IMG/VR virus record: IMGVR_UViG_3300043570_002098
Strand: one strand, 5' to 3'
DNA length: 64,000 bases
Source of the DNA: a virus
Part shown: in pieces, positions 9,852 to 48,435 of the stretch
Layout of the letters: every line of letters begins with the position of its first letter
Numbering within the stretch: the first letter of the stretch is position 1
The notes under the pieces: model-generated
Seen by the model: only the letters and a program-made list of their open reading frames with translations
Told to the model about the DNA's origin: nothing
The model's database searches: none
Program-made: the position numbers and the translations under genes

Positions 9852-9882
9852 TCCTCGAGGTTTATACTTCGGGGATTTTTTT
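9852..9882. terminator. Terminator hairpin between convergent genes
   Basis: TCCTCGAGGT-TTAT-ACTTCGGGGA followed by a T-run. Confidence 0.7.
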
Positions 9883-11489
9883 TATAATACCATTCTACTA
9901 CCTATTTGGAAATTACTTAAAAAATCAGAAAATGGTTTGGTGTTTCCACTCATTTTGTAGTTTGCGGAGAACCCAAATCTCTTACTAATTTTATAATCAA
10001 ATGCTGCACCTAATAAAAATCCCATATGTCTATTGACTGTTGTTACACCCGTTGCACTATTATAACTTATAGGTGCAAACATTGTAAATACCTGTGGTGA
10101 TATTGTTAATTTTTTATTATACTGATAAGGTTTAGTCCAAAACACAATTGCAGATGTAGCCATATTGTATTCAAACCCACCCGTCTCATCGTTTTTAAGT
10201 AATAGATTAATTACACCCACATTATAACCATATGTTCCTTTTTTTGCAGTTGGTTTGATGTATGTATATCCTAATAAATTCATATAGTTTCCACCTAAGT
10301 ACGCAATTCCAGTTCCGTATGAATGTATTGCGTCTAATTGTCCATCTTCGGTCATTCCCATTTTTGTTATACCACCCGTCATTACGATTGAACTTAAATT
10401 ACTATTCACCATCAATCCAGCACTATAACTCACATCACCTGCTAACGATGATTTACTAAGTCCTAATGATATAGACGCTAAGAAACTACCCGGAGTTGCT
10501 TCCATAACACTTATATCCGATGCCAATAGTGTTGGATTTGTTACCTCTTGTTTTTTCTTTTTTTCTTCTTCTTTTTTCTTTTCTTCCTCTTTCTTTTTCT
10601 CTTCCTCTTTTTTAGCTTCTTCTTTCTTCTCTTCTTCTTTTTTGGCTTCTTCCTTTTTCTCCTCAGTCTTTTTTTCTTCTGATTTCTTTTCTTCGGTTTT
10701 TGCTTCTTCTTTCTTTTCTTCTGTTTTAGCTTCAGTTTTCTTTTCTTCGGTTTTTTGTTCTGCAGGTTTGTCCGATTTAGTTTCAGCAGGTTTTGCCTCC
10801 GCGGGTTTTGCTTCAGCAGGTTTTGCTTCTGTTGATGATGAACTACCACCACTTGCAGGAGGTGGAGATGAACTACCACTTGCGGGTGGTGGTGCAGCTG
10901 CCGGTGGAGGTGCTGCCGTTGGTGGGGGTGCAGTGACTACGGGTGGTGGGGGTGGTGGTGCAATGTTTATTGGTGGTGGTGTTGCTGCATTTGCCGCTGC
11001 AGAACTTGCTGCCGCACTTGCCGATGAACTTGCTGCCGATGATGCCGATGAACTTGCAGCCTTTGCCGCAGCCTCTGCAGCCGCCTTTGCTGCAGCATCT
11101 GCGGCAGCTTTTGCGGCGGCGTCCGATGCCGCTTTTGCTGCGGCATCTGCAGCTGCCTTTGCGGCTGCGTCAGCGGCAGCTCTTGCTGCAGCATCTGCGG
11201 CAGCTCTCGCGGCAGCTTCTTGTGCCAATCTTATATTATCATTTATAGGACAAGGAGTTGAAAATATTGAATTTACCCATACTTGAAACGCACCACTACT
11301 CATGTCAGCTAATGTAACTATTTTAGATTTACCTCTAATAACTGCAACCGTTTGATTTTGACCAAAGGGAATTGTTACCACATAGACTTTATTGTCACAT
11401 GGATCAATATATGTTTGTGTTATAGTACTTTGACTAAACGACTTAACATAAAAAAATAATATTAGGAGAGAGATAATATATTTTTTCAT
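9882..11489 (-). CDS. Secreted protein with Ala-, Pro- and Lys/Glu-rich stalk and C-terminal outer-membrane beta-barrel
   Basis: Signal peptide (KSFS|Q), AAAKAAAD repeats, polyproline, KKEEE repeats, amphipathic beta strands at the C-terminus. Confidence 0.65.
   Translation of the reverse strand: MKKYIISLLILFFYVKSFSQSTITQTYIDPCDNKVYVVTIPFGQNQTVAVIRGKSKIVTLADMSSGAFQVWVNSIFSTPCPINDNIRLAQEAAARAAADAAARAAADAAAKAAADAAAKAASDAAAKAAADAAAKAAAEAAAKAASSSASSAASSSASAAASSAAANAATPPPINIAPPPPPPVVTAPPPTAAPPPAAAPPPASGSSSPPPASGGSSSSTEAKPAEAKPAEAKPAETKSDKPAEQKTEEKKTEAKTEEKKEEAKTEEKKSEEKKTEEKKEEAKKEEEKKEEAKKEEEKKKEEEKKKEEEKKKKQEVTNPTLLASDISVMEATPGSFLASISLGLSKSSLAGDVSYSAGLMVNSNLSSIVMTGGITKMGMTEDGQLDAIHSYGTGIAYLGGNYMNLLGYTYIKPTAKKGTYGYNVGVINLLLKNDETGGFEYNMATSAIVFWTKPYQYNKKLTISPQVFTMFAPISYNSATGVTTVNRHMGFLLGAAFDYKISKRFGFSANYKMSGNTKPFSDFLSNFQIGSRMVL
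10546..11221 (-). repeat. Coding low-complexity repeats (Ala-rich, polyPro, AEAKP, KKEEE)
   Basis: Visible in DNA and translation; locally GC-rich. Confidence 0.85.
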
Positions 11490-11495
11490 TATTCG

Positions 11496-12224
11496 TTATT
11501 CAAATTTTTCATTATAATCTTTTATTGTAAATGGACAATATACTGAATATCTAATGTCTTTTGATAAGTTTTTAGTTACCTCATGTACGTAATTGTATTT
11601 TTGATGTTCAATCAACACACATTTATTAAAATTTGGTAAAACTTCTATTTCACCATTTTTAGTATAAAGTTTTAATAATGACCCATCATCAAATTTTCTA
11701 TCGTTGTTTATAAAAAATACAGCAGTAAATAATCTTTCACCATTTGGGTCACTATCAAAATGTTTCTTAATAAATGATCCTTCTGGATATACATTTATAT
11801 GACCAACTAATGAATCTTTAAAATTTGGTTTAATTTTTTTATTAAATAATTCAAATAATATGTTTTCGTAACATTTAGATATTAGATCATAAATTCCATT
11901 AGTTTTTAACAAACTACTATTATGTGTTAATAAAAAATTAAAATAATCATTTTCATTAAATCCATATTGATCATTTAATTTATTTAAAAAACAATAATCT
12001 GTATAATTCAATGAATATGAATCTACTATTTTATTGTATCTTATTGGATCTATTTCTTTAACTTTATTTTCCACATCATTTGACCATTGTAAAAACCCTA
12101 ACGAGCTATTAATCTCATCAACATTTACGTCAAAATTAATTAATGATGTATTAAGTTTAACAAACTCATCTTTAGTAAGATAATTTTCTAAATCAAATAT
12201 TTTATAGTCAAAATCTAAATTCAT
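11496..12224 (-). CDS. 2OG-Fe(II) oxygenase, prolyl-4-hydroxylase-like
   Basis: Y..GSFI..HFD, R.FT.VFFIN, P.FN..V, HEV and RYS motifs. Confidence 0.8.
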   Translation of the reverse strand: MNLDFDYKIFDLENYLTKDEFVKLNTSLINFDVNVDEINSSLGFLQWSNDVENKVKEIDPIRYNKIVDSYSLNYTDYCFLNKLNDQYGFNENDYFNFLLTHNSSLLKTNGIYDLISKCYENILFELFNKKIKPNFKDSLVGHINVYPEGSFIKKHFDSDPNGERLFTAVFFINNDRKFDDGSLLKLYTKNGEIEVLPNFNKCVLIEHQKYNYVHEVTKNLSKDIRYSVYCPFTIKDYNEKFE

Positions 12225-13069
12225 TATTTGTTATTTAAACCTATTGATATTTGTGTGTATCCTCTTATTGGGTCGGTATCTAATTTTAATGTAACGAATT
12301 TAAAATCTTTTATAATACCAACTTTAAATGTGGTAAATGATGAATTTGATTTTGGAAATGAAATACCACCTAAGTCATCTTTACCTTGCCATCTAATAAC
12401 TTCATTACCAAATCCTACCATACCATGTATTCCTATTTTACCAATTCTTTTACCACCACCAACATAGAAAGTTGATTCTTTTTTCCAATCTTCTTTACTA
12501 AGTGGAAAGTCGACATTGTTAATTTGACCATATGGATAATAGCTATTTTGGTCTATTGCGTAAGTCATTACATAATCCATAATAAAATATCCTCTCTTGT
12601 CACCAATCGTTCCCCAATAAGAAATTTGTTTATTATTTGTATGTCCAAATCCAAAGGAGGTATAAACACGTTCTTTTCTAATAGTATCTCTTTTTCCACC
12701 TTCATATATATGAATTACACTTCTTTGTCTCCATCCGTAATCATCATACCAAATATAAGGCATTGGTTGATACCATCCCCAGTTTCCCCAATAGTAACCA
12801 AATTGATTATTTCTATTCCAATTTTGAACACGTACTCTACCACGTTGGTCTGGTTGTGATTGTTGAGGTTGATTATTTCTCCAACTACTTACATTATTTT
12901 GTTGTGGTACAGATGGTTGAACTCTTGTTTGAGTTGATTGTGATGTTTGTGATGATGCTGGAACACTTCCACCAGTTTGTCTCCAAGAACTAACTTGGGA
13001 ATATAACATTATTGTGCAGAATAATATTAATATTAATATTAAACCTGTAACTAATAAAACCTTTTTCAT
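12224..13069 (-). CDS. Secreted protein, probable small outer-membrane beta-barrel with Gln/Trp-rich N-terminal region
   Basis: Signal peptide, repeated VSSWR, aromatic-rich segment, beta strands ending TQISIGLN. Confidence 0.55.
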   Translation of the reverse strand: MKKVLLVTGLILILILFCTIMLYSQVSSWRQTGGSVPASSQTSQSTQTRVQPSVPQQNNVSSWRNNQPQQSQPDQRGRVRVQNWNRNNQFGYYWGNWGWYQPMPYIWYDDYGWRQRSVIHIYEGGKRDTIRKERVYTSFGFGHTNNKQISYWGTIGDKRGYFIMDYVMTYAIDQNSYYPYGQINNVDFPLSKEDWKKESTFYVGGGKRIGKIGIHGMVGFGNEVIRWQGKDDLGGISFPKSNSSFTTFKVGIIKDFKFVTLKLDTDPIRGYTQISIGLNNK

Positions 13070-13245
13070 ACTGTTTCAGTTAAAATTGTGGTTAGTAAAT
13101 AACCGGTTATTATTGGGAATGGTGAAAATATTAAAAAAAAGAACAATAACCTCCAAACCAATGGATCAACATTTGTACGGTGACTTAAACCACTACATAC
13201 ACCAAAAAAAACTTTGTCGTCGTGAACTCTTTTAAACTTTTTCAT
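13066..13245 (-). CDS. PspC domain membrane protein
   Basis: Not in ORF track (59 aa): MKKFKRVHDDKVFFGVCSGLSHRTNVDPLVWRLLFFFLIFSPFPIITGYLL... matches the PspC pattern R...DK...GVC.GL....DP...RL.F. Confidence 0.85.
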   Translation of the reverse strand: MKKFKRVHDDKVFFGVCSGLSHRTNVDPLVWRLLFFFLIFSPFPIITGYLLTTILTETV

Positions 13246-13269
13246 ATAATATAAATATTAAAAAAGGGG

Positions 13270-13503
13270 TTATAAAACCCCTTTTAAACATATTCTATCT
13301 AATTCTTCTTGCCTTAAACCTATGGTTGAATCTATTTGTCCTCCGTCGGATAAAATGTTTACTAAATAAAGACCAAATTTTTTATCACTTATCTCAATTT
13401 CTTGCCCATGTATAAACCCCATATCCATCAATTTTAATCTCATACATGGTGTACAATTTTCACAAGGATTATTTTGTGGAACGTCCACTACTTCATATTT
13501 CAT
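13270..13503 (-). CDS. FeoA-like SH3 domain protein
   Basis: RLKLMDMGFIHGQEIEI and IGLRQEE motifs; extra CxxCxxC. Confidence 0.75.
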   Translation of the reverse strand: MKYEVVDVPQNNPCENCTPCMRLKLMDMGFIHGQEIEISDKKFGLYLVNILSDGGQIDSTIGLRQEELDRICLKGVL

Positions 13504-14231
13504 TATTTCGTGAATATACCTTTTTTAATCATTCTATCAAGGATGTTAGCACATGCAATGTCTAAAGCTTTCTTTGTTGCAATACTAATTGTTGATTGAT
13601 TGAACTTAATTGGGTCAATGGTCGCATCCGATAAAAGGGTTAACTCTCTTTTTGTTGTTGCCTCACCTAAACCTGACCCACCAAATACTACACCTGTTTC
13701 AGCATCAGTAAATCTAACCTGAAGACCTATACGAGTTACCATATTGTCTTTAATACCGTCTTTTAGGTTAATAGTTTCGTCTTCTGACACCGAGTAGTCA
13801 TAACACTCAATCGTAACAAAATACTTCGCCAAATTGATTTTACCACGACCGTCTAATTTATTCTCAGAAATACCCGCAGCAGACGCTTGGAATTGTTTTA
13901 CCATCCTATTCTTAATTTCTGTCTTATCCTCGGTAAATTTGAATCTATTTAAGTTTTCAAGGTATTCCATTGAAATGTTAGCAACACCCAAACCAACACG
14001 TTTTTCTTTTAACTCAGGATACATTTCATACATCTCATCAGAAATGCCTGCCTTTAATATTTGAATTGGAATTTGAGGACCGTCGTAATCCATGTAAGCA
14101 CTTATGTCTCGTTTTTTTTCAAAATCTGCTTTATACTGTTCGGTTTTTGTTGATCCTATTGTTTGTCCCATTGCATTATCTGCAATTAAACAGGTTAAAA
14201 TAAAAATTAAAAATATTATTAAATGTCTCAT
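13503..14231 (-). CDS. CsgG/HfaB-like secreted protein
   Basis: Signal peptide; G....E.L.NLNRF..E, G...AKY.V, IGLQVRFTDAETG.V..GSG.G, C-terminal helix ATKKALD.A. Confidence 0.65.
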   Translation of the reverse strand: MRHLIIFLIFILTCLIADNAMGQTIGSTKTEQYKADFEKKRDISAYMDYDGPQIPIQILKAGISDEMYEMYPELKEKRVGLGVANISMEYLENLNRFKFTEDKTEIKNRMVKQFQASAAGISENKLDGRGKINLAKYFVTIECYDYSVSEDETINLKDGIKDNMVTRIGLQVRFTDAETGVVFGGSGLGEATTKRELTLLSDATIDPIKFNQSTISIATKKALDIACANILDRMIKKGIFTK

Positions 14232-14240
14232 AGTTTTATA

Positions 14241-14984
14241 TTAAGGGTTCCATTTATTTAATGCACTTATGTAGTTACTCGTCATATGATCTTTGGCAGT
14301 ATTACCTGTGAATACAGCTTTAAGATATTCACCAACTCTTTGCCAATCAATCATCCATTTTTTAACTTTACCCTCACTATCAATACGTAATTCAGTATTA
14401 ACGTGGTGATATCCAATATTTGGGGCACGAGTAACAACATCTAAATTATTAACAATCCTTAATGATTCAATTGATGATTTATCAAAGTTCTGTTTGAATA
14501 CTTTATTACCAACTCTTGGACTACCGATAGTACAACATATAATTTTATTTGATTTATAAATTGAATAAATCTCATATGCACATAAGGTAGAAACTGCAGC
14601 TCCCAAACTGTGACCGCAAACAATAATATTATCAACTTCACCCTCCCCACCTAATGTGGATAATGCTTTTTCAAATGATTTATAAGTTTCGTCTTTAACA
14701 GCGTCCCAAGATGATTTAAATCCAATGTGAACTTTTTCACCATCTTGAACAAATGGAACTTTATCAATTGATGCGTCGTTTTGGAAATCCTTTTTAGAAG
14801 AACTTCCTCTCCAAACGATATAGATAGATTTATCCTTTGTGGCAACAAATCCTTGTGTATCTGTTTTTTTATCGTCAATCCATTTAATTAATTTTAATCT
14901 TTGTGCTTTAAAATCAATGTCTTTTTGTTCTGAATATACTTTCTCGGTTAAACCGACATTGTATAGTATTTCGTTTTTTGTCAT
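14241..14984 (-). CDS. Lipase class 3
   Basis: WRGS, VHIGF, GHSLG nucleophile elbow, GSPRVGN, DVVTR.P and DH motifs. Confidence 0.92.
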   Translation of the reverse strand: MTKNEILYNVGLTEKVYSEQKDIDFKAQRLKLIKWIDDKKTDTQGFVATKDKSIYIVWRGSSSKKDFQNDASIDKVPFVQDGEKVHIGFKSSWDAVKDETYKSFEKALSTLGGEGEVDNIIVCGHSLGAAVSTLCAYEIYSIYKSNKIICCTIGSPRVGNKVFKQNFDKSSIESLRIVNNLDVVTRAPNIGYHHVNTELRIDSEGKVKKWMIDWQRVGEYLKAVFTGNTAKDHMTSNYISALNKWNP

Positions 14985-15008
14985 TGTGTATTTGTTTTTG
15001 TTATAATA

Positions 15009-15245
15009 TTACTGTCTTGCTGGCCATATACCACGAGTGGCTATTATGTATTTCATACCATCCATAGGTGGTTCCATTTTAGGTACCGCAAATAAATTTG
15101 GTGTTGCTCCGTATCTATCTTGCAGTAATACATATAACGCCTCATTTTCCCTTATGTTTAATAATTGTCCGTTGCATTCTACATATCCTTGAGGAGCGTA
15201 GCCTCCTGCAAATAATTTAATTGCCCCAATTAATTCTTCTTCCAT
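15009..15245 (-). CDS. Stand-alone phage tail-collar domain protein
   Basis: IGAIKLFAG..AP.G...CNGQLL.I..N.ALY.LL...YG and YIIA..GIWP.R. Confidence 0.85.
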   Translation of the reverse strand: MEEELIGAIKLFAGGYAPQGYVECNGQLLNIRENEALYVLLQDRYGATPNLFAVPKMEPPMDGMKYIIATRGIWPARQ

Positions 15246-15248
15246 AGT

Positions 15249-16322
15249 TTATTGTGTTTTTGTTTTAGATTGATCACCCTTCTTTAAAAATATATCAAAT
15301 ATTGTTTTAGGACTGTATTCTACAAGTAATATTAAACCCTTCCTCAACGTAGAGTTTTTTACAACGTGATTTAAAATATCTTTAATAACCTCTTTAATGG
15401 CGAAATTTTTAGTGTCAAAATATGTTCCATCAAAATATCTTGGACTTGTTCCCTCACCACCTGGTGAACCGTGATGAGCACCTATAGAGGTACGCCAATA
15501 ATCAGCATGATTTTGCCATTCAGGAACTGAAACCAATTCAGGTGAATCAAAAAATAAATTCCACGATAATACATTACCCTTTTGTAACATATTACCAGTA
15601 CCTAAGTTAAAAAGATTTAAAAAGTATTGATTAAACTTATCTAATTTGTGATCACTTGTTGTTACCATTCCTCCTATTTCTACATTGATATGTCCTGTAC
15701 TATATGCTTCTTCCTTTATTGCAAATTCAGGATTTTTAAATCTTGGTGATAAACCCTTTCCGAGTTGAAATATAGGTTCTTTAGGATTTCCTGGTAGATG
15801 TGTTAAAACACGAATAGCATTTTCTTTGTTGATAGGATACTTACGAGAACTGTATTTTAATAATGGCCAAATTGCTCTTAATAGACCACCTTGATTTTCA
15901 CCTGGTGTTAACCAAATTTTTCCCTCAACCATCATATCCGCAGCAATTTCCTTTGTGTCTTCATTAACCCATCCTCTTTGTCCCGTAACTGTTACTTCCA
16001 CATTGATACAAATCTCATCTCCAATCCACATCCCTTGTTGAGGACAGATTATGGAATAAATTCTACCTTCATTGGTATATCCTATTCTTGAAATATAAGG
16101 AGCAAATTGTACATAACAACGTTTTGGGTCTTTTTCCCCATTTAGGGTATTCCAACTAAACATTGGCCATTTAACACCCCATTGTCTTTGTAGTAAATTA
16201 ATGTTATCCATATTACCCAACATAGGTAATGAGGTTAAATCTGTGGTAGGATATAGCATTTTCTTTTGTTTTTCAGATGGAAAACCACCTTGCCATCCCG
16301 TAGGAATTTGTTCGTTTGTCAT
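15249..16322 (-). CDS. Hypothetical protein
   Basis: 357-aa ORF, no recognised motif; TATTTAT box upstream. Confidence 0.75.
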   Translation of the reverse strand: MTNEQIPTGWQGGFPSEKQKKMLYPTTDLTSLPMLGNMDNINLLQRQWGVKWPMFSWNTLNGEKDPKRCYVQFAPYISRIGYTNEGRIYSIICPQQGMWIGDEICINVEVTVTGQRGWVNEDTKEIAADMMVEGKIWLTPGENQGGLLRAIWPLLKYSSRKYPINKENAIRVLTHLPGNPKEPIFQLGKGLSPRFKNPEFAIKEEAYSTGHINVEIGGMVTTSDHKLDKFNQYFLNLFNLGTGNMLQKGNVLSWNLFFDSPELVSVPEWQNHADYWRTSIGAHHGSPGGEGTSPRYFDGTYFDTKNFAIKEVIKDILNHVVKNSTLRKGLILLVEYSPKTIFDIFLKKGDQSKTKTQ

Positions 16323-16344
16323 ATTCTTTTAATATAAATACACA

Positions 16345-16370
16345 AAAAAGGGAGTTTTTAACTCCCTTTT
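16345..16370. terminator. Bidirectional terminator-like hairpin
   Basis: AAAAGGGAGTT-TTT-AACTCCCTTTT. Confidence 0.75.
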
Positions 16371-16373
16371 ATA

Positions 16374-16622
16374 CTAACCTTCTGTTTCTTCTTTCTTTTT
16401 GTGAGAGAATTTATCCAAAGTATCTGCACCCATTCCAATTCCCGTGATTAACATCACCGCATTCACCAATTCAGGTGATGGAGCGAAATCCGCGTGAGAG
16501 AACGAATTTAAAATCATCGTAATACATAGGAATAAAGCACCTATCATTGCTATTACCGGCTTTACCGATATTGATCCTCTTTCATCTTTGAAAATTTCAA
16601 TAACCCATTGTTTAAAATTCAT
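16374..16622 (-). CDS. Small two-TM membrane protein (holin-like)
   Basis: Two hydrophobic helices, DERG.IS.K motif, charged C-terminus. Confidence 0.55.
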   Translation of the reverse strand: MNFKQWVIEIFKDERGSISVKPVIAMIGALFLCITMILNSFSHADFAPSPELVNAVMLITGIGMGADTLDKFSHKKKEETEG

Positions 16623-16651
16623 AGTTTTTTATTTTTTGTCTTTTGTTTATT

Positions 16652-17320
16652 TTATCCTTCCGTATGCATTTCTGCATTTTCATCTTTAATTTTACCACAT
16701 TTTAAACACTCCTCAATGCCATCACCATCCAAGTCACCCCAAACGTGTTCACATTGTCTATGTGCGAAATACATATCTATTTTACCGTCACCATCAAAAT
16801 CAATACCATCTATTGTACCATCACCATCTTCATCAACCTCAACACCTGTTCTTGGTTGTGATTTGAAAGGACTTTCAACAACTTGAGGATTATTTGGTTC
16901 TGATTTTACCTCTACTTTGTTTGCCTCAATTAAGTTGATTTCATGTGCGTTCTTTGCGGCTTGCACAAATGCATCTGGAATCAATGGAGTGTTATTTGGT
17001 GGAGTTACAGGCATATCAGCAGTATTACTCATTGACGTACCATCTTCTTCGTCCATTTTCTGAACTAACATCTTATCCTTATCAGTATCACTAAACCAAT
17101 AGTCAATGATTTTACCATAACTACCGATAAACGCTCCTAATAATAATAAAAGAAGTTCTTTCCATTCTCCTTCAATCGTAGATTTATTTAATATACCAAA
17201 GAACATTCCTCCAATAATAATCATAAATCCACCTAACACTATCGCAGTGATATACCACCTGCGTTTCATCATATTTGCTAATAAATCCTTAAATCCGCTT
17301 GGCGGTTGTTCATTACTCAT
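16652..17320 (-). CDS. Two-TM protein with DxDxDG Ca-binding loops and Cys/His cluster
   Basis: LLGAFIG....IIDYWF; DEDGDG, DFDGDG, DLDGDG; CEH...CLKC. Confidence 0.65.
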   Translation of the reverse strand: MSNEQPPSGFKDLLANMMKRRWYITAIVLGGFMIIIGGMFFGILNKSTIEGEWKELLLLLLGAFIGSYGKIIDYWFSDTDKDKMLVQKMDEEDGTSMSNTADMPVTPPNNTPLIPDAFVQAAKNAHEINLIEANKVEVKSEPNNPQVVESPFKSQPRTGVEVDEDGDGTIDGIDFDGDGKIDMYFAHRQCEHVWGDLDGDGIEECLKCGKIKDENAEMHTEG

Positions 17321-17337
17321 CTTTTTTTAATTTAAAA

Positions 17338-17652
17338 TTACCATTTAGGTGCTTCTTCTTTAAACTCATCACCTTCTTTTTTCTTAGGTTTTGGTGCTGG
17401 CGCCGGTTTAGCACTACCGTCTCCACCTTTATTGATGATTACAGTTTTACCACCACCCGATTGTTGAGTTTGTGAATTGGTAATGTTGATTACAGGTGCC
17501 GCTTGTTGAACGGGAGCCTCTTTTTCGTCACCACCTGTTAATTTTGTTGTAAACCAACCACCCACACCTAATGTGATGGTGCTTACTAAACCGATAATGA
17601 TGTTCTTAATTGAACCACCTGTACTTTCTGATTTTTCTTGTTCTTCTGCCAT
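17338..17652 (-). CDS. Single-TM hypothetical protein
   Basis: N-terminal TM helix and polar tail. Confidence 0.65.
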   Translation of the reverse strand: MAEEQEKSESTGGSIKNIIIGLVSTITLGVGGWFTTKLTGGDEKEAPVQQAAPVINITNSQTQQSGGGKTVIINKGGDGSAKPAPAPKPKKKEGDEFKEEAPKW

Positions 17653-17684
17653 AATTTTGTGTTTTTTGTCTTTATATAATTATC

Positions 17685-18053
17685 TTAAATTTTATTAAAA
17701 TCTGTAATTCCTAACATATTACCCGCAACATCGTATAATGCAATCCTATACGCTGAAGATGGTAAAGCGGATGTATACACCCTTAAAATGTTATCACCAA
17801 CCTTAACCTCACTTGTTGATTTTGATACCACTCTATTGGAAATATCAAAAATCTTAACGGTTACAGTTTGAGCAACATCACTTTTTATGTTCATTGCAAC
17901 TTCATTTGTTATAAATGAAGTTTCTAATTTTAATCCCACTGAACTTGAGATTTTAAGGTTGTCACTAATCACTTGTGGTTGCATTGGTATGTCTACTTTT
18001 CTACATCCAACAAGTAAGATTAATCCAAAGAGTACGAGAGATACTTTTTTCAT
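17685..18053 (-). CDS. Lipoprotein with Ig-like fold resembling a T9SS C-terminal domain
   Basis: LVGC lipobox; VKIFDISNRVV, GDN...V....LPS..Y.I.L pattern. Confidence 0.55.
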   Translation of the reverse strand: MKKVSLVLFGLILLVGCRKVDIPMQPQVISDNLKISSSVGLKLETSFITNEVAMNIKSDVAQTVTVKIFDISNRVVSKSTSEVKVGDNILRVYTSALPSSAYRIALYDVAGNMLGITDFNKI

Positions 18054-18065
18054 TTTTTGTCTTGT

Positions 18066-18419
18066 TTAATTTATAATTATTCTTGTTTTACCTATTTGAT
18101 TATTATTTTGATCCTTTAACACGACACTTAGGTTTTTTGTCGGTAAAGTATTAGTAAATATTTTAAGAGAGTTTAATCCTACTTTACCAGTAAACCTTTC
18201 CCTTGATACTACTTGGTTTTGAACCGTATCAATCATTGTTAAAGTATATACTCCTCCTGTAGTTAAATTAATATTAATAACATCCCCGTTTTTTACCTTA
18301 TTTTCAGATAAGGAGAAAAATTCCACATTTGTCGGTGACACAGGTGTAAACGGAACCATTTTTTTGCACGATATTATAAAAACCATACAACACAATAATA
18401 TAATTTTGATACGTTTCAT
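18066..18419 (-). CDS. Lipoprotein, paralog of 17685-18053
   Basis: IISC lipobox; VGLNSLKIFTNTLP aligns with VGDNILRVYTSALP. Confidence 0.6.
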   Translation of the reverse strand: MKRIKIILLCCMVFIISCKKMVPFTPVSPTNVEFFSLSENKVKNGDVININLTTGGVYTLTMIDTVQNQVVSRERFTGKVGLNSLKIFTNTLPTKNLSVVLKDQNNNQIGKTRIIIN

Positions 18420-18422
18420 ATT

Positions 18423-19316
18423 TTAAAATTGAAAGTTTGTTCCTATCATAAATAGAATTGGATTACTCTTTTTATACCCAACCGATTCACTTAATTTATT
18501 CCAAGTTGTGTTATATCTAACATTAGTATTCAATACAAATTTTTTAGTTATTTTCCAATCAATAGATGTACCATAATATAAGTCCAAATTGAAATCATCT
18601 ACATATGCTAAATCCGATTCAGTCCCATCTTTGAATACTTTGTAGATATCACTCATTGCAAATATTTGTGGTGAGATGTTTACTCTCTTTGTTTTGAATG
18701 TATACGTATACATTGCCATACCTCTATAACTAATTTGACTTGATGATGGCATTTGTGGATATATTAAATCTTTAAAATCACCATTTTCATCTACTATATA
18801 TTTTCCTTCCCATTGACCTTGATAACTTCCCCAAAACGATTTTGACGCAATCACACTATAACCAAATGTTCCAAACTTTTTAGTTCTGAATACATCAATG
18901 AATGATAGAGAAATATCTTTTTGAAAATCAAAATCGGTTGAATAGAATGATTGTAATGTAGTAGTTCTTGTATTCGTATTTCTACTGAAACCATAACCCA
19001 CACCATAGTAGTTCCATATTGGATTTATTGATGATGCGAATGAGTGACCCCATTTACCATTTTTAGATGATTTACTATATCCTAAATTTAAGGTAGTAGA
19101 TACTTGTTTTCCAATTACACCTACTGATAAATTTGAGGATGAAAGAACATCTTTTGAAAAATCAATATATGACTCTAATATACCTAAATTATTCCAATCA
19201 CCACTTTCTCCAAATAATTCTTTTGGTGATAGTTGTAAGGTATCTGGTTTTACAATTTGTGCGTTTGTAACAAATGTTGTCAAAATTAGTGACAGAATTA
19301 ATAATAGTTTTTTCAT
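18423..19316 (-). CDS. Outer-membrane beta-barrel protein
   Basis: Signal peptide (TNA|Q), alternating beta strands, BAM-type terminal Phe (GTNFQF); paralogous to the barrel of 9882-11489. Confidence 0.7.
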   Translation of the reverse strand: MKKLLLILSLILTTFVTNAQIVKPDTLQLSPKELFGESGDWNNLGILESYIDFSKDVLSSSNLSVGVIGKQVSTTLNLGYSKSSKNGKWGHSFASSINPIWNYYGVGYGFSRNTNTRTTTLQSFYSTDFDFQKDISLSFIDVFRTKKFGTFGYSVIASKSFWGSYQGQWEGKYIVDENGDFKDLIYPQMPSSSQISYRGMAMYTYTFKTKRVNISPQIFAMSDIYKVFKDGTESDLAYVDDFNLDLYYGTSIDWKITKKFVLNTNVRYNTTWNKLSESVGYKKSNPILFMIGTNFQF

Positions 19317-21925
19317 TAATTTATTTTTATTTTTAATGATTTTCCATCTTTATTAACTGCGTCCGTTGAACCTATTGAAATTAAACCCAATATGTTATCC
19401 AATTTTGTGTTTGACGAAAATGAAATCTTATATGTTGTTGTCTTATCTAAACTTGTACTACCATCACTTACCAAAGAACCTAAATTAATGTAATTACCCT
19501 TGTTGGTTGCATAGTTGGTAGGTGAACCTTTTGTGGTAAATTGTATTCCTTTAAAATTTAAGACCGAATTATCGTAGTTTAATTGAAATTGAGTTCCTAC
19601 CACGTTTTGTTGTAATGGGTCAAATGTGATGTAAGCATAAACACTATCACCAATTACTTCGGTCATAATAGATGCGTTGATGTCAGTTGATATTGGTGTA
19701 CTCATTGATGTTCTAACTGTCATCGTTGTGATATTATTTGATGGAGGAGTTGCCGAATGTGATAAGTTTACATCACCTTTCCAACTAACAGCCAAATCGT
19801 AGTTATAACTTATTACATTATCTAATAAACTAAAATTATAAGTTTTTCCTGCAAAATTTTGAAAAGAACTCCAAGTTGACTTACCAATTTTATTATAAAT
19901 TGAATCAGGTATCAAACGTATTGTATTATCCAAAGTATAATTACTAACTAAGTTTTGTACACCCGTTAAATTTTGTAATAATTTGAAACAATCCGCTTCA
20001 TTAAATAAACCATCATCATTTACATCTGCGTTTTTATATTGAATTCCGTAAGTAAACTCATTACCACTTTGATTTCCAAATATACCACCATTTGCCAATT
20101 CCTTAAATGCCAAATACACATCTGATACTGTTACGATACTATTATACAAAGTTTTTAATTGTGTACTATCATATTCTTGTAATTCCATTTTGTGTTGTTT
20201 GAACGCACCTTGTTGGGTAAGTCCAATACCACATGCAAATGCATAGTCGGTATTTGAACCATTCATATTTCTAATATATTGATTATATGCAGAAGTTCCA
20301 TCGGTTACTTTTGTTAATGGAGATGGAACAGTATATTGTGCCCAACCATTATTGTCATGTGATGTATATGTAACAGGCCCATCATACGCATCTAATATTT
20401 TTACATTTGATATTTTCGTTGGGTCTATACTTCCAACTTGTCTCATATCAATTAACAATCTACTATTACCATTTAACCAACTTGCATTTGGATTTGTATA
20501 AGACCACTCTACCCCACCCGGAGATATAGTTGCTTTGTATGATGCAGGTGCCGATACGAATTGGTAACTTAATCCCCATCCACCATAACCCGATGTTGAT
20601 ACTCCATTACGAGTTGAACCAACATATTCACTTAACCCCTGTACTACTTTAATATAAACTTCTTTTGTTTGTCCGTCTGATATTACACCAGCATGTACCG
20701 CTGCGGCTGGAATATATGAATCACTTGTATAGATATCGGTTCCCCATATTGCTCCACCTGTTGTACCTGTTATTGTTATTCTATATATCTTACCAATATC
20801 CGATTCATTAAATTGTTGCATATCGGATGTTCCTGCTGTTAATGGAATACCAGTTGTATAAATCTTTGAAGTATCTATTTGATTTGAAAGAAATACTTTA
20901 CCCAAACCACTCAATGATTTATAACCATCCGCCGCTGCCCAATTTGAATATGTGTCGTTTCTTTTGAATATCTGTGCTAAGAATTTTGTTTTATCTATTG
21001 AAGTATTAAACTTAAATCCAAATAATGCTTTTATAGTTTCTCCGTTTGAATGTGTTACTGAATTGGTATAGAACTCCGTAAATGTTGCATCATCGGGATT
21101 AGACCAAGTTCCATATTCAATTACATATGGGTTACTCCAATTGTTTGATAAGTCATTCCATTGATTACCATTCCATTTTGTTACTGCATAATCCTCACTA
21201 TGATTATATCCGTTTGGTTCACCATTTGCCCAATTATTATACACACCTGGTCGGTTTCCGGCAGTTGGTCCGTTGGATGTTTTCATCACAGTCCCCTTTT
21301 CAGGACCCGCATCAATTACCCAAGTTCCATCTATAACTTCATCTGTTGCTGCAAACCATATATTTGATTGTGGTACATTAGCTTGAATAAATAAATCTTC
21401 CGATGATGATGTTAGTGTTAATAGATAACCCGTCTGTCCTTTGAATGTTGTTGTTAACGCAATTGCTCTTGCGTTTGTATAAGTTGTACCGGTTGTTACG
21501 GGTTTGTAAAAGTGACCATTTACTCCATTGAAATAATATCCTGGTTGATTAACAGTTGCGGCCACTGAAATATTAATATCACCAATTACTGTTCCTGTGT
21601 TTATTTTTAGAGACGCTAACGCAGTATTAATACTTGCCATTGTTCCAGTTACCACTAAACGAGTTTTATTACCACTTAAAGTAAATCCACTTGCTGCCGT
21701 TAAACCCGTTGTTGTGTTTAATACGAATGTTGTACCTGATGGTGGATTGACTAAACTTATAGAAGCAAGTAAAGTAGATGTTGCACCAAATCCACTTAAT
21801 GAAAATCCACTAGCGTCTTGTCCTGTGGTATTCACAGTAAATGATTTAGGGTCTGGAGCCGTTACTGACTGACCAAACCCTAAAAATGATATAAATAAAA
21901 ATAATACTATTAATAGTTTCTTCAT
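19316..21925 (-). CDS. Secreted multidomain adhesin-like protein: C-type lectin-like + LCCL + dockerin-like + cohesin-like
   Basis: NGHFY...GYLLT...WANGEPN...WNDL (CTLD); IWGTDIYTSDS....AAVHAG (LCCL); ADVNDDGLFNEAD (dockerin-like); GTQFQLNYDNSVLNF (cohesin-like). Confidence 0.75.
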   Translation of the reverse strand: MKKLLIVLFLFISFLGFGQSVTAPDPKSFTVNTTGQDASGFSLSGFGATSTLLASISLVNPPSGTTFVLNTTTGLTAASGFTLSGNKTRLVVTGTMASINTALASLKINTGTVIGDINISVAATVNQPGYYFNGVNGHFYKPVTTGTTYTNARAIALTTTFKGQTGYLLTLTSSSEDLFIQANVPQSNIWFAATDEVIDGTWVIDAGPEKGTVMKTSNGPTAGNRPGVYNNWANGEPNGYNHSEDYAVTKWNGNQWNDLSNNWSNPYVIEYGTWSNPDDATFTEFYTNSVTHSNGETIKALFGFKFNTSIDKTKFLAQIFKRNDTYSNWAAADGYKSLSGLGKVFLSNQIDTSKIYTTGIPLTAGTSDMQQFNESDIGKIYRITITGTTGGAIWGTDIYTSDSYIPAAAVHAGVISDGQTKEVYIKVVQGLSEYVGSTRNGVSTSGYGGWGLSYQFVSAPASYKATISPGGVEWSYTNPNASWLNGNSRLLIDMRQVGSIDPTKISNVKILDAYDGPVTYTSHDNNGWAQYTVPSPLTKVTDGTSAYNQYIRNMNGSNTDYAFACGIGLTQQGAFKQHKMELQEYDSTQLKTLYNSIVTVSDVYLAFKELANGGIFGNQSGNEFTYGIQYKNADVNDDGLFNEADCFKLLQNLTGVQNLVSNYTLDNTIRLIPDSIYNKIGKSTWSSFQNFAGKTYNFSLLDNVISYNYDLAVSWKGDVNLSHSATPPSNNITTMTVRTSMSTPISTDINASIMTEVIGDSVYAYITFDPLQQNVVGTQFQLNYDNSVLNFKGIQFTTKGSPTNYATNKGNYINLGSLVSDGSTSLDKTTTYKISFSSNTKLDNILGLISIGSTDAVNKDGKSLKIKIN

Positions 21926-21928
21926 AAA

Positions 21929-23581
21929 TTATTCAACAATCAAATTAATCTTGTTTCCGTTTCCATCAACCGCGTCAGCTAAAACTGTATAAAATAAACC
22001 CGCCGTATTTGTTATGGTTTCTTTCGGTATAAAAGTTAATTTGTAAGGTGTCCCTATTTTAATTCTACCAGTTTTCATTTGATCCATTGAACCGAATGTT
22101 AATCTACCATCTCCATTTGTTGAGAAGTTAGTTACGTTTGGACCGGCGTCAAATGATATATTATCAAATGTTAATTTTGAATTGTCATATTGTAAGATTA
22201 CCTCTAATCCCGCTAATCCGTCTTTTGTTAATGTTCCCGTTAATACAACTTTACCATTAACAATTGTAGAGTTTAATCCTAATGTTGCCTTTTCAATTGT
22301 TGGTGTATATGACATTGATTGAACTGAAAATGATTTGATTGATGAGGTACTTTTTTCATTAATTGAGTTTAAATAAGTTCCTGCCGCAATTCTACTTGCG
22401 ATTACATCAGGGTCAGATGAATGAGACCAATCCAAATCACCACCCCATGCGTATACCATATCTACCGATTGATTTGATGATGTTACTTTTGTTTTGTAAG
22501 TAGGTACACCATCTAACCAACTTTGATTTAATAAACCACTATACCATTTGAATAAACCACTATTTGTACTCAATGGAATCCATGCACTATCTTTTACATT
22601 AGCGATACCCATTACATATGCAAACATATAATATGAATCACTTTCACTAAACACACTTTTACTCTTTGTAATTTGACCTATATTCTTTTGTAATTGTGGT
22701 CTTGTAAAATAAGTTTTTACACCCGCGATATCCGTTTGTGAAATACCTAAAAATGCTTTATATGCGTCTGATACTGTTATAATGTTATTCATAAAAGTTT
22801 TTCCTGTTGCACCATACATCCACACCGCCAAACTATCTCCCACTTTCACTTCTGTTGTAAATGTCGCCTCACCACTTGCATCTAATACTTTTGTTGCAAT
22901 TGGTGTTACTGTAAAATCAATTGTACCATCTGTTTTTATTGGAAATAATGCAACACTGTGTGCGGTAATATCATATCCTGTTGGGAATAAAACTCTTAGT
23001 TTGAACTGAGACGTATTACCAACAACATTTGTTAAAGACATTGTACCTGGATCAGTTGTAATTGGTGTAATGTATGCACTTGTTGCATCAATTGAATATG
23101 ATAAGTCTAATTTATGAATGTCGGTATACGCACCCAAATCTTTGATTACATATTTTTGAGTTGCAACATCTCCGTTGATAGATGCATCGGTTCTTTGAAC
23201 AGTTAATTGACCAACATTCCAATCTGCGTTGGCTGCGTAACCCCATGGAGATATTAGATATTGTGCATATAAATCTTTAGCTGTAATACTATTTGCTGCA
23301 CTTGAAGTAAATTTATAAGACGACCAACCTGTGTAGAATGTTTGAACTGATGTTCCTTGTGAGAACGTCGTTGAAACATATGAAAGTGCCTTATTGTTAA
23401 ATTGATATCTCAACCAAAAATAACGAGGCGTGGTTGTACCTCTCGCAACCGTGTATTTAACTGAAACCGTATCACCAACCTTTAACCCTGTTGTAGGTGT
23501 CACAGATTGGTTGACAGTTAATTGTGCATTTGTTGCTATGGATATTACTAGTATTCCAAGTAGCGTTAATAGTTTTTTCAT
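21929..23581 (-). CDS. Secreted protein with cohesin-like modules and degenerate dockerin-like segment
   Basis: Signal peptide; LKVGDTVSV...QFNNKALSY; ITVSDAY.AF; GDLDWSHS; GLEVILQYDNSKLTF; paralogous to the C-terminal half of 19316-21925. Confidence 0.65.
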   Translation of the reverse strand: MKKLLTLLGILVISIATNAQLTVNQSVTPTTGLKVGDTVSVKYTVARGTTTPRYFWLRYQFNNKALSYVSTTFSQGTSVQTFYTGWSSYKFTSSAANSITAKDLYAQYLISPWGYAANADWNVGQLTVQRTDASINGDVATQKYVIKDLGAYTDIHKLDLSYSIDATSAYITPITTDPGTMSLTNVVGNTSQFKLRVLFPTGYDITAHSVALFPIKTDGTIDFTVTPIATKVLDASGEATFTTEVKVGDSLAVWMYGATGKTFMNNIITVSDAYKAFLGISQTDIAGVKTYFTRPQLQKNIGQITKSKSVFSESDSYYMFAYVMGIANVKDSAWIPLSTNSGLFKWYSGLLNQSWLDGVPTYKTKVTSSNQSVDMVYAWGGDLDWSHSSDPDVIASRIAAGTYLNSINEKSTSSIKSFSVQSMSYTPTIEKATLGLNSTIVNGKVVLTGTLTKDGLAGLEVILQYDNSKLTFDNISFDAGPNVTNFSTNGDGRLTFGSMDQMKTGRIKIGTPYKLTFIPKETITNTAGLFYTVLADAVDGNGNKINLIVE

Positions 23582-23583
23582 AG

Positions 23584-24231
23584 TTATTTAACAAATAATT
23601 TAGTTATTAATTTATCCGCCGATTTTTTTAAGGCGTTACTAAGTGACGTTTGATTAAATTGACCTCCCTCATCAACAATTAATGTTGACATTGATATTTC
23701 TGAAGATGATTCTTCGACCATTATTTCCTTTTCTTTTTTACCATCCTTATATAAAGTTCCTTTCATACGAATGACAACTTCTTCTTCATTTTTGTGAAAA
23801 ACAGAAATGTTCTTTTTTGTTGTAAGAACATCTAAATAAATGATTTGAACTTTTAATTTGTATGGGGCTGAAGGTGTTAAATCATAACCCTTTTCTTGTA
23901 AGAATTCTTCCAATGTATTTTTTACACCGAAAGCTAAATTTCTATTACCTGCCAATTTACCCATCTTAACTTCATTGGTAACACTCTCCACCCAAATATG
24001 GTCTTCAGCCACATAGAATATATTTTCAGGTGAGTTCTTGAATGTACCATCAATCCTCCACGAAATCCAATTTGAGATGTCTCTTGTTATTTCTCTTTGG
24101 CCTGAAAATTCCAAAACCGCCATGGATATACCGAATATCATTCCAAATATTACCCATGATATCGCAAAGTATAAAAAACCTAAAAAGATTTTTTCTTTAA
24201 TATTAATTGATAGTGTTCTTAATTTTTCCAT
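23584..24231 (-). CDS. Membrane-anchored CsgG-like protein
   Basis: N-terminal TM; FNQTSLSNALKKS matches FNQSTISIATKKA of 13503-14231. Confidence 0.5.
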   Translation of the reverse strand: MEKLRTLSINIKEKIFLGFLYFAISWVIFGMIFGISMAVLEFSGQREITRDISNWISWRIDGTFKNSPENIFYVAEDHIWVESVTNEVKMGKLAGNRNLAFGVKNTLEEFLQEKGYDLTPSAPYKLKVQIIYLDVLTTKKNISVFHKNEEEVVIRMKGTLYKDGKKEKEIMVEESSSEISMSTLIVDEGGQFNQTSLSNALKKSADKLITKLFVK

Positions 24232-27699: not shown

Positions 27700-28515
27700 A
27701 TTGGCCGTCTATAGTCAATAAAATAAACCATGAAAGTGGGATAAAGTGAGGAGTCCTTGGTTGGGACAAATTGCGGATTCAGTAATGGATCTCGAGTAGA
27801 CAAGTGGAATATCGTTTGACCTGAAGTAGTGAGGGTAACTCCGTAGCGAAATGGTTAGATGACCAAGCAATCCGAGTTGTTTGGTTGAGGTGGGAACACC
27901 AATAAGAATAATCCATAGAGTTCATGTAAGAAGTATAGTTATCCAATTATACAATTGCGTAATTCAATACAATGGTGGTCTTAAAACCGTAGCGTCGTAA
28001 GACGGAAGGTATGACAAAAAACAGGTGGTGCTGTTAGTGTCCTTGACTAAATCCTACCAAGGGTTTAATCTCGAAGGAAACCAAAAATATGGAGGTGGGG
28101 ACACTTCAGAGAGTAGTTTAGTATCGAGTCGTCCAAAAGATGACTTGGCTGGGTGACGAACCACTACTTTCCCAATTCGGAAAACTAAATTTTTATTTTG
28201 GTATAAAAATCATACATAAAAAGAAAAAGTGTTCGTCAGTCATTGGAGACAGGTGACTACTTAGTCGTGAGAGGTTCACGGCCATAAAGGGACTCAATCC
28301 CAATATGATTTTTAAGAAAGTTCTCTAAACCCGCAAGGTTGAAACAGGTCGGCAGATTTGTTGAGTAATAAGTAATAAAAGAGTATCTGATGACTTTAGG
28401 ATTGGTTAATCTAATTGACCGTCATTGATCGGTACGAATCAAAAGTTCGTGGAAAAGGAAAGAAACAAATAATGTTCCTAAGTCGATTGTTAAAACTTGT
28501 ATTCTCAGAGTTTTA
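27700..28515 (+). ncRNA. Large ornate ncRNA, GOLLD-like (~800 nt; ends approximate)
   Basis: ORF-free, raised GC, dense hairpins with GNRA and CAAAA loops, own promoter, boxA and terminator, beside a phage tRNA cluster. Family assignment rests on size and context. Confidence 0.65.
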
Positions 28516-30982: not shown

Positions 30983-31379
30983 GGGGACGCCTGGATTTGA
31001 CGGACGTTGGTATGGTAAATGGGCACGTAGTCAGACATCATCTATGACTTTAATACACGGTGGTAAAAAACAAAAGACAACGTTTATAACGTTATGGAAG
31101 CTTGTGGTTTAATCACAACTTCTACTGTAGCTGTAGCCTAATAGCACACTTACAAATCGGGTCGACGGACATATAACCTAGGAACAGAAGTCCTTATGGT
31201 GTAACACCACCCAGAGTGTTGGAGCAAACTTGACGGCTCTTGAAAATCCGGTTAGGAACGGTATTGTAAGTTTCCCGATATTAACTTACTATTTGTCTGT
31301 TATGAATAATAGAATAAACGTGTAGTCCATCTATGGTACGGCGGATCGGACAAGGGTTCGACTCCCTTCGTCTCCACCA
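30983..31379 (+). ncRNA. ssrA: tmRNA
   Basis: GGGGACG/CGTCTCC acceptor with G3.U pair, GGATTTGAC D-like loop, GGTTCGACTCC T-arm, encoded ACCA, tag frame 31076-31141; TATATTTG promoter element at 30966. Confidence 0.95.
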
Positions 31380-48225: not shown

Positions 48226-48435
48226 TTATATTGTATCTTGTACAATCTCAGCTTCAGGAATTTCAATTAAAAAAAGAAGAGTATCGTCATTGTTAATTCT
48301 ACTTTTAACAACAATATCACATCTCCAATTTTCCTTTAAGTCATTTACATGACCATCTTTAATACGATCTTGTTTTATCTTTTTAAAGATATAATAAAGT
48401 TTATTTTGATAATTTACTAATTCTTTATTTAACAT
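48226..48435 (-). CDS. Hypothetical protein
   Basis: 69 aa, overlaps the upstream stop. Confidence 0.6.
   Translation of the reverse strand: MLNKELVNYQNKLYYIFKKIKQDRIKDGHVNDLKENWRCDIVVKSRINNDDTLLFLIEIPEAEIVQDTI

Follow-up and report, generated by a model that had tools for sequence, protein, structure and literature searches.

Does a very large phage install an assembly of its own making in the envelope of the cell that it infects? The question is raised by 17 minus-strand open reading frames (ORFs) that run from position 24231 down to position 9882 of the stretch of virus DNA analyzed here (64,000 nucleotides [nt] of IMG/VR record IMGVR_UViG_3300043570_002098), referred to as the window. 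An initial annotation, made from the letters alone, had described this block as one surface-assembly module that encodes CsgG-like pores, outer-membrane barrels and lectin/cohesin/dockerin cargo. The window corresponds to bases 24683-88682 of a 91.5-kb source record that, according to CheckV, represents 27% of an estimated genome of ~340 kb, and a relative that encodes a protein 96% identical to S550, one of the block's secreted proteins, is complete at 335.6 kb. The record accordingly covers only part of a huge genome, that of a lake phage whose hosts are Flavobacterium-type Bacteroidota. Unless stated otherwise, features are given in window coordinates and lie on the minus strand.

Conservation of a core of envelope genes

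The ORFs and the short junctions between them, most of which measure -1 to 32 nt, are present as the initial annotation had described them. A signal peptide, a lipobox or a transmembrane (TM) helix was recognized in 12 of the 17 proteins. In a crude scan for N-terminal export signals and anchors, run over the whole 91.5-kb record, hydrophobic N-termini were assigned to 9 of the 17 block genes versus 4 of the 97 genes elsewhere in the record (Fisher p = 2e-6), so the claim that most of the genes carry export features was borne out. Furthermore, all six cleavage sites of the signal peptidase I (SPase-I) type in the block are followed by Gln at position +1, and this residue is invariant in all four family alignments that include the site. 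Gln after SPase-I cleavage is known as the Q-rule of Bacteroidota (PMC5837995), and its invariance thus independently supports both real export and a Bacteroidota host.

A search with the S550 protein yielded 78 viral loci (49-99% identity, contigs up to 335 kb), and gene presence was counted in the 39 related loci with enough flank, whose S550 proteins share 49-96% identity. Seven genes (Cs2, S550, S869, Ig117, Ig122, tm104 and Cs1) occur in all 39 loci, and tm222 occurs in 36. BarA was found in at least 29, a count limited by flank length, tm82 in 25 (by tblastn), Bar3 in 20 and BarB in 17. The remaining genes are rarer: the FeoA gene is present in 10 of the loci, the lipase gene in 5, p357 in 4, and the genes of the tail-collar protein and the 2OG oxygenase in 2 each. 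The five genes whose products have no export signal are exactly these five poorly conserved ones. Because the two sets coincide, the conserved unit comprises about ten envelope genes, and the five cytoplasmic genes are rare, unrelated inserts. The proposal of a single 17-gene module consequently holds for the exported and membrane core, whose proteins carry Bacteroidota-type signal peptides, lipoboxes and anchors consistent with the Sec export that had been claimed for them, but not for the inserts. The core is syntenic in the 39 loci and reordered in distant lineages, in agreement with the expected co-conservation.

Two larger gaps interrupt the block (51 and 200 nt), each of which contains a terminator-like hairpin. 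One of them (16346..16370) follows tm82 and would close the first transcription unit, and the other (13262..13285) follows the FeoA gene; on account of both hairpins, the block is predicted to consist of at least three transcription units.

Cs1, Cs2 and the outer-membrane barrels

Cs1 (13503..14231) is the most conserved gene of the module, with 61-98% identity among the related loci, and its product is a predicted periplasmic protein cleaved at ..G/Q. An AlphaFold2 model built from 17 homologs (pLDDT 65, medium confidence) had CsgG as its best Foldseek match (4uv2/4uv3, E = 3e-7). VIA, an aligner independent of Foldseek, likewise placed CsgG first (Z = 11.5, 159 residues aligned, rmsd 4.0), followed by PelC (9.9), Cj1090c (9.7), the FlgT ring (9.1) and LptE (8.2), with TraT among the weak fold matches (Z = 6.1). 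The top match among the viral structures of BFVD was a phage CsgG (E = 2e-5). A feature similarity of 0.94 to CsgG in the Atlas was taken as a lead only. Cs1 is thus modeled with a CsgG/PelC/LptE-type fold, and, since the scores of PelC and LptE come close to that of CsgG, a ring role and a plug role appear equally likely for it.

At the sequence level, the Pfam CsgG family (PF03783) matched nothing at E <= 1 in the record, in the complete 335.6-kb relative or in the Flavobacterium phage immuto, while the controls were matched, and a Pfam scan of Cs1 and Cs2 gave no match to the CsgG family at E <= 0.1. Cs1 has an SPase-I site with the invariant Gln at +1 instead of a lipobox, and no Cys is conserved in its family alignment. 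Moreover, none of the 17 block proteins was identified by Pfam as CsgF, CsgE or CsgA/B. Hence, the description of Cs1 as CsgG-like stands for the modeled fold but not for the family, and its designation as a CsgG pore is not established.

Cs2 (23584..24231), the first gene of the module, is predicted to encode an N-terminal membrane anchor and a YajG/Lipoprotein_16-like periplasmic domain. The corresponding Pfam family (PF03923) matched Cs2 with 24.7 bits (E = 2.2e-5), just below the cut-off of 25, and is found on 52% of the Atlas cluster of Cs2. All of the motif pairs quoted in the initial annotation were found in the sequence, including the pair on which Cs1 and Cs2 had been called paralogs. 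The link between the two proteins is weak: they have a C-terminal helix of the type FNQ..S.A.KK in common, and hhalign gave 17%. An intermediate is gp019 of immuto, which matches both the Cs1 and the Cs2 profiles.

The model of BarB (18423..19316), computed from 46 sequences (pLDDT 70.5, pTM 0.64), suggests an outer-membrane beta-barrel of ~12 strands, and the protein ends with Phe. Its Foldseek matches were NanC, FapF and PcoB (E ~1e-5), followed by BamA/EspP barrels (EspP ~5e-4), so the predicted outer-membrane barrel fold was recovered by a structure search. BarA (9882..11489) carries a signal peptide, a conserved N-domain with two Cys residues, a linker of ~230 amino acids (aa) and a C-terminal domain (~310-535) that aligns with BarB over 203 columns (hhalign 96.7%, E = 3.6e-10) and is, by this homology, assigned as a barrel, although its last residue is Leu versus Phe in BarB. 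In the linker, a repeat rich in Ala is combined with a poly-Pro tract and with a long stretch of Lys/Glu-rich sequence resembling a single alpha-helix, a layout that might fit a periplasm-spanning tether or an autotransporter-like stalk. BarA directly follows Cs1 in many loci, often with overlapping stop and start codons, and its N-domain is kept in immuto gp018 (E = 2e-6).

Neither BarA nor BarB matched a Pfam or NCBIfam family, and the hhalign matches to DUF5777 (94% over 49 columns) and PorP_SprF (PF11751; 44% over 70 columns) were local, the latter being the weaker one. By these comparisons, the two proteins represent a putative new family of outer-membrane barrels, to which 162 representatives in a collection of 1.84 billion clusters belong; for one barrel, 844 homologs were retrieved at E <= 0.01. 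We also considered BarA and BarB as PorP/SprF proteins with type B cargo; this assignment was rejected, since no family match was obtained and the hhalign alignment was no more than local and weak. The third barrel of the initial annotation, here called Bar3 (12224..13069), did not fare as well as the two related ones, as no evidence for a barrel fold was obtained. It is a predicted exported protein (cleavage ..YS/Q) whose linker is rich in Gln/Ser/Pro and whose C-terminal domain is rich in Trp/Tyr/Gly, and no sequence relation to BarA/BarB or DUF5777 and no relative in the PDB were found for it. PDB sequence searches with the profiles of Cs1, Cs2, the barrels, the lipoproteins and Bar3 returned nothing usable.

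The secreted lectin proteins S869 and S550

The largest candidate for cargo is S869 (19316..21925), a predicted secreted protein in which an N-domain is followed by a C-type lectin domain (residues 164-268), an LCCL domain (391-450), a dockerin-like segment (~595-655) and a cohesin-like C-terminus (~750-869). Pfam recognized the lectin domain (Lectin_C, PF00059; 24.0 bits, cut-off 22.6) and the LCCL domain (52.6 bits), whereas the Cohesin match (PF00963) remained at 21.5 bits, below the cut-off of 24.1. The lectin site residues E236-P237-N238, E244 and W256-N257-D258 are conserved in the family, and the family profile found animal CTLD structures in the PDB (E = 1.4e-5), so that S869 carries a canonical Ca-dependent lectin of the EPN/WND type, whose EPN motif predicts ligands of the Man/GlcNAc/Glc type. 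Among 14 relatives of S869, Lectin_C was recognized in 12, Cohesin in 9 (best E = 4e-6), LCCL in 4, and PA14 and Dockerin_1 in 1 each. In one relative, the LCCL domain in the middle of the protein is replaced by PA14, and S869 thus carries an exchangeable second glycan-binding domain. The two available copies of the window sequence differ at position 21910, where an Ile-to-Val change falls in the S869 signal peptide; the other 63,999 bases are identical.

S550 (21929..23581) is likewise predicted to be secreted, with cleavage at ..NA/Q; no assignment was obtained for its N-terminal half, and its C-terminal ~290 aa contain a dockerin-like and a cohesin-like part. Its relation to S869, claimed before on the basis of common sequence blocks, was confirmed by a BLASTP alignment of about 300 aa with the C-terminal part of S869 (E = 5e-15) and by a match to the hidden Markov model (HMM) of the S869 family (E = 8e-27). 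A dockerin-like motif of the type DVNDDG..NE.D is visible and conserved in S869 and S550. Of the cargo proposed by the initial annotation, the CTLD, LCCL and cohesin-like domains were therefore recovered, while the dockerin is represented mainly by its motif.

Lipoproteins and small membrane proteins

Ig117 (18066..18419) and Ig122 (17685..18053) are predicted small lipoproteins with a beta-sandwich domain. Their paralogy, as previously claimed for two Ig-like lipoproteins, is evident from their alignment (E = 4e-11), and the lipobox Cys is invariant. Sub-threshold matches in this family (n = 19) were to DUF3244 (9/19), Por_Secre_tail (7/19) and FlgD_ig (4/19). The idea that Ig117 and Ig122 are split-off sorting domains of the T9SS (type IX secretion system) was discarded, as the family matches remained below threshold and the lipoprotein profile aligned with a real T9SS sorting domain at an hhalign value of only 0.4%.

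Three small proteins are predicted to reside in the inner membrane, and none of them matched a PHROG or Pfam family. tm104 (17338..17652) is a putative single-pass protein with a low-complexity C-terminal tail, and its homolog in immuto, gp016, directly precedes Cs1. tm222 (16652..17320) has two predicted TM helices and, next to the membrane, an invariant segment; it carries a CxH...CxxC motif at the C-terminus. Its N-terminal half also immediately precedes Cs1 in L081, a distant lineage described below. The DGDG repeats of tm222 were considered as a membrane-anchored dockerin; this candidate was dropped, as the family does not conserve these repeats and the zinc-ribbon-like CxH...CxxC motif comes after them, because of which the tm222 C-terminus is probably cytoplasmic. 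tm82 (16374..16622) is a small protein with two predicted TM helices and a charged tail and resembles a holin in shape only.

Distant versions of the module and published systems

The same families recur, compacted and in a changed order, in two distant lineages: L081, a 254-kb phage-like contig in a Bacteroidetes metagenome-assembled genome (MAG), and the cultured Flavobacterium phage vB_FspM_immuto (160 kb, gp012-gp019). Both versions encode a lectin or dockerin protein as well as a cohesin protein, together with a small inner-membrane protein related to tm104 or tm222, Cs1 (55-59% identity) and proteins resembling BarA and Cs2; a barrel co-localizes with the Cs1-, BarA-, Cs2- and cohesin-type proteins in both. 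The annotation of the immuto genes reads hypothetical, lectin or cohesin protein. The searches of GenBank phages for near-identical DNA and with the S550 protein gave no match, and Cs1 was the only query that found the cultured immuto phages there.

The dockerin-cohesin homolog of L081 matches Cohesin above the cut-off (36.8 bits) and also carries the T9SS sorting domain Por_Secre_tail (44.5 bits), and immuto gp015 has the cohesin and the apparent start of the L081-type sorting domain in common with it (E = 2e-28). This type A sorting domain on the distant cohesin proteins provides the best evidence for a cell-surface destination. In the clade of the phage analyzed here, there is no sorting domain, and S869 and S550 each combine a dockerin-like with a cohesin-like module in a fusion.

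Several further observations concern these lineages. An exported (..FA/Q) nuclease of the NUC1 type is encoded at 48425-49093 of the window, ~24 kb from the block, and is a homolog of immuto gp012 (29% identity, E = 2e-10), the first gene of the compact module in that phage. Cs1 matches in the genome collection were L081 and L080 (2.7 kb, from a 'Thiobacillus' MAG), both of which look like phage contigs binned into MAGs. Close to its module, L081 also encodes a PRPP synthetase and two tail-collar-domain proteins.

A search of 400 sampled Bacteroidota genomes with barrel and dockerin-cohesin profiles detected no host operon of this kind, in line with the view that the block is not an already characterized host operon. 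The matches in these genomes were weak and partial (DUF5777, PorP/SprF and two giant surface proteins), and cellular cohesin-dockerin homologs were weak and confined to 2 of the 400. A host-operon origin was therefore rejected, as the one strong match turned out to be the 254-kb phage-like contig in a MAG.

No publication that matches the module was found in the literature, and the 'moraphage' paper (PMC12619734) does not mention it. The statement that this is not a described system accordingly applies to the present architecture, whereas phage csgG/csgF clusters have been published for pelagimyophages of the HTVC008M group (PMC7029224) and for the Methylophilales phage Melnitz (PMC9004378). 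Like the module described here, those clusters represent a phage-encoded, host-absent outer-membrane component of the secretion type that is conserved in its clade and located in a non-structural region; 'sibling capture' or lysis timing has been hypothesized as the function there. They differ in that they encode bona fide CsgG and CsgF by sequence, neither of which was recognized here, whereas the present partners comprise barrels of a new family as well as lipoproteins and proteins of the lectin/cohesin/dockerin kind, and the host phylum is Bacteroidota.

A possible envelope assembly

We consider the chances about even that the core builds a phage-encoded envelope assembly that holds glycan-binding proteins and serves receptor masking or adhesion. 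According to this proposal, the Sec-exported core proteins would be installed in the envelope of the infected Flavobacterium-type Bacteroidota cell. There, by analogy with PelB-PelC, LptD-LptE and CsgG, each barrel would work with a CsgG-fold partner as a station for outer-membrane insertion, export or anchoring, which the small inner-membrane proteins and the two lipoproteins would tie to the envelope. The lectin proteins would be the cargo, held at or in the outer envelope and possibly linked to one another by Ca-dependent cohesin-dockerin contacts. The pay-off would be a changed, glycan-coated cell surface, which could mask receptors on infected cells and debris and thereby provide superinfection exclusion and progeny protection; alternatively, it could make infected cells stick to their neighbors. 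Receptor masking, exclusion or adhesion is what we infer as the purpose.

The analogy has recognizable bounds. As in PelB-PelC and LptD-LptE, a protein of the predicted CsgG/PelC/LptE fold is genetically paired with an outer-membrane barrel (Cs1 with BarA; BarB with Cs2 or a Cs2-like protein). However, there is no sequence relationship to those systems; Cs1 is predicted to be soluble and Cs2 to be TM-anchored, whereas the partners there are lipidated; the barrels have ~12 strands instead of 16 or 26; and the cargo, if any, would be protein rather than polysaccharide or lipopolysaccharide. A cohesin-like domain and an EF-hand-type dockerin-like segment recall cellulosomal and noncellulosomal cohesin-dockerin assemblies but are here encoded by a phage, combined with lectins instead of enzymes, and placed on one polypeptide. 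Compared with T9SS type A cargo, the L081 protein and apparently immuto gp015 bear the sorting domain that is absent from the present clade.

Several points weigh against the proposed assembly. Cs1 is not lipidated, and the tip of its long hairpin (residues 137-176) is charged, which speaks against contact with lipid, so that it is doubtful whether Cs1 forms a membrane pore as CsgG does. Confidence in the fold models is medium (pLDDT 65 for Cs1 and 70 for BarB), the relationship between Cs1 and Cs2 is weak, and BarB is absent from about half of the relatives. The evidence for a dockerin consists of the motif and one weak Pfam match (PF00404, in 1 of the 14 relatives, E = 0.0011). Por_Secre_tail (PF18962/TIGR04183) was absent from S869, S550 and the 14 relatives, and no recognized outer-membrane targeting signal was found in S869 and S550, because of which these two might stay in the periplasm. 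Finally, a conserved gene order may, in phages, stem from common ancestry and need not mean that the genes act together. A bolder version of the envelope assembly appears possible but unlikely to us: a T9SS-independent machine for outer-membrane translocation and anchoring, in which a CsgG-fold ring and the new 12-strand barrel with its long stalk or tether would export lectins. Through cohesin and dockerin modules of their own, these would polymerize on the infected cell into a coat that binds glycans and depends on Ca, and that would capture neighboring hosts for the progeny or conceal the receptor of infected cells and of debris.

It is known that phages can equip the surface of their host with single proteins, and the block could also be an island of independent envelope morons, each acting alone (for instance as an exclusion lipoprotein, a porin or a lectin), whose shared location reflects a permissive hotspot and common descent. 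The variable tm82-Cs1 slot, the patchy presence of BarB, Bar3 and tm82, and the division into at least three predicted transcription units would all suit such an island. Yet seven genes are kept in 39 of 39 loci over 49-96% identity, the same families occur together, in another order, in L081 and immuto, the Cs1-BarA adjacency recurs with often overlapping stop and start codons, and the matching cohesin-like and dockerin-like modules imply partners; we therefore regard independent morons as rather unlikely. Classical envelope morons (Lom and Bor of lambda, Llp of T5, and exclusion lipoproteins of the TraT type) resemble the module in that they are phage outer-membrane proteins or lipoproteins that alter the infected cell surface, but they are single proteins with defined targets, whereas the core comprises about ten genes with parts from the inner membrane to secreted proteins. 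Still less probable is a device for lysis or egress, in which the two-TM proteins would act as holin and antiholin and the CsgG-fold protein and the barrels would perforate or destabilize the outer membrane late in infection, in keeping with the role in lysis timing proposed for CsgGF of Melnitz (PMC9004378). The topology of tm82 and tm222 is holin-like, and in immuto the endolysin is encoded ~6 kb downstream of the module. What weakens this explanation is that the block contains no match to a holin, spanin or endolysin family and that the endolysin homolog of the present genome lies ~42 kb away; nor do the lectin, cohesin and dockerin cargo proteins have an obvious role in lysis.

Two further explanations carry little weight in our estimate. 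If the lectins were receptor-binding or decoration proteins of the virion, the LCCL/PA14 swap would resemble host-range evolution as in receptor-binding proteins, and a tail-collar-domain gene does lie within the block; but the predicted cleavable signal peptides with their invariant Gln at +1 would direct these proteins to the periplasm, away from virion assembly in the cytoplasm, the collar gene is present in 2 of 39 loci only, the neighboring genes are non-structural, and no structural PHROG was matched, all of which makes virion parts very improbable. We give least credence to a module for nutrient uptake or auxiliary metabolism, whose pores, receptors and glycan binders would keep the dying cell importing. 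Macromolecule uptake has been raised as a possibility for phage CsgG (PMC7029224), and some relatives carry TonB-dependent-receptor-like genes and FeoA at the locus; these genes are, however, accessory and not part of the core, and the block contains no transporter, TonB/ExbBD or SusD partner.

Returning to the envelope assembly, the conserved set spans the distance from the inner membrane to secreted lectins and is conserved in huge freshwater phages of a widespread clade (78 viral loci), and its compact form exists in a cultured Flavobacterium phage, so that a cultured phage-host pair (immuto with Flavobacterium sp. LMO8) makes the question directly testable. If the core does form one assembly, large phages would actively rebuild the surface of infected cells, with consequences, in lakes and seas, for superinfection and the survival of progeny as well as for cell aggregation and the attachment of particles. 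A new family of outer-membrane barrels would thereby also be defined, the CsgG/PelC/LptE fold would be given a new use, and the module would be the first cohesin-dockerin system in a virus.

Accessory genes and genomic surroundings

A hotspot separates tm82 from Cs1: in relatives, this slot is occupied by TonB-dependent-receptor-like proteins, GT2, a metallophosphatase or DUF2589 pairs, and the further outer-membrane proteins among these speak for the envelope assembly. The TonB-dependent-receptor-like outer-membrane proteins (SusC/TBDT-like) are encoded in the slots of two relatives, at L075:16409-18661 and L064:16626-19649, with Plug plus OMP_b-brl_3 and CarboxypepD_reg plus a barrel as their domain content. 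In the present genome, p357 (15249-16322) encodes an unassigned protein of 357 aa and is followed by the gene of the tail-collar-domain protein (15009-15245; Pfam Collar, E = 6e-14). This stand-alone collar protein of 78 aa and p357 form a coupled pair inside the module that is restricted to the closest relatives. The class-3 lipase gene (14241-14984; Pfam Lipase_3, E = 3e-27) comes next; like those of p357 and the collar gene, its product has no export signal. FeoA (13262..13503; Pfam FeoA, E = 2e-5) and the predicted cytoplasmic 2OG-Fe(II) oxygenase (11496..12224; Pfam 2OG-FeII_Oxy_3, E = 5e-9) are accessory as well. The oxygenase was considered as a hydroxylase of the poly-Pro stalk of BarA, but as it occurs in only 2 of the 39 related loci, a dedicated prolyl-hydroxylase role is doubtful.

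The neighborhood of the block is non-structural, with flanking genes for a Lon-like protease, an RnlA-like RNA ligase, five tRNAs, transfer-messenger RNA (tmRNA) and GOLLD RNA. The GOLLD RNA (RF02032) is located on the plus strand at 28109-28511, between the tRNA cluster and the tmRNA gene, and scored 296.9 bits against a gathering score of 150. The tmRNA (RF00023; plus strand, 30983-31379) scored 88 bits and was also called, with its tag peptide, by ARAGORN; phage Melnitz, the carrier of csgG/csgF, likewise encodes a tmRNA (PMC9004378).

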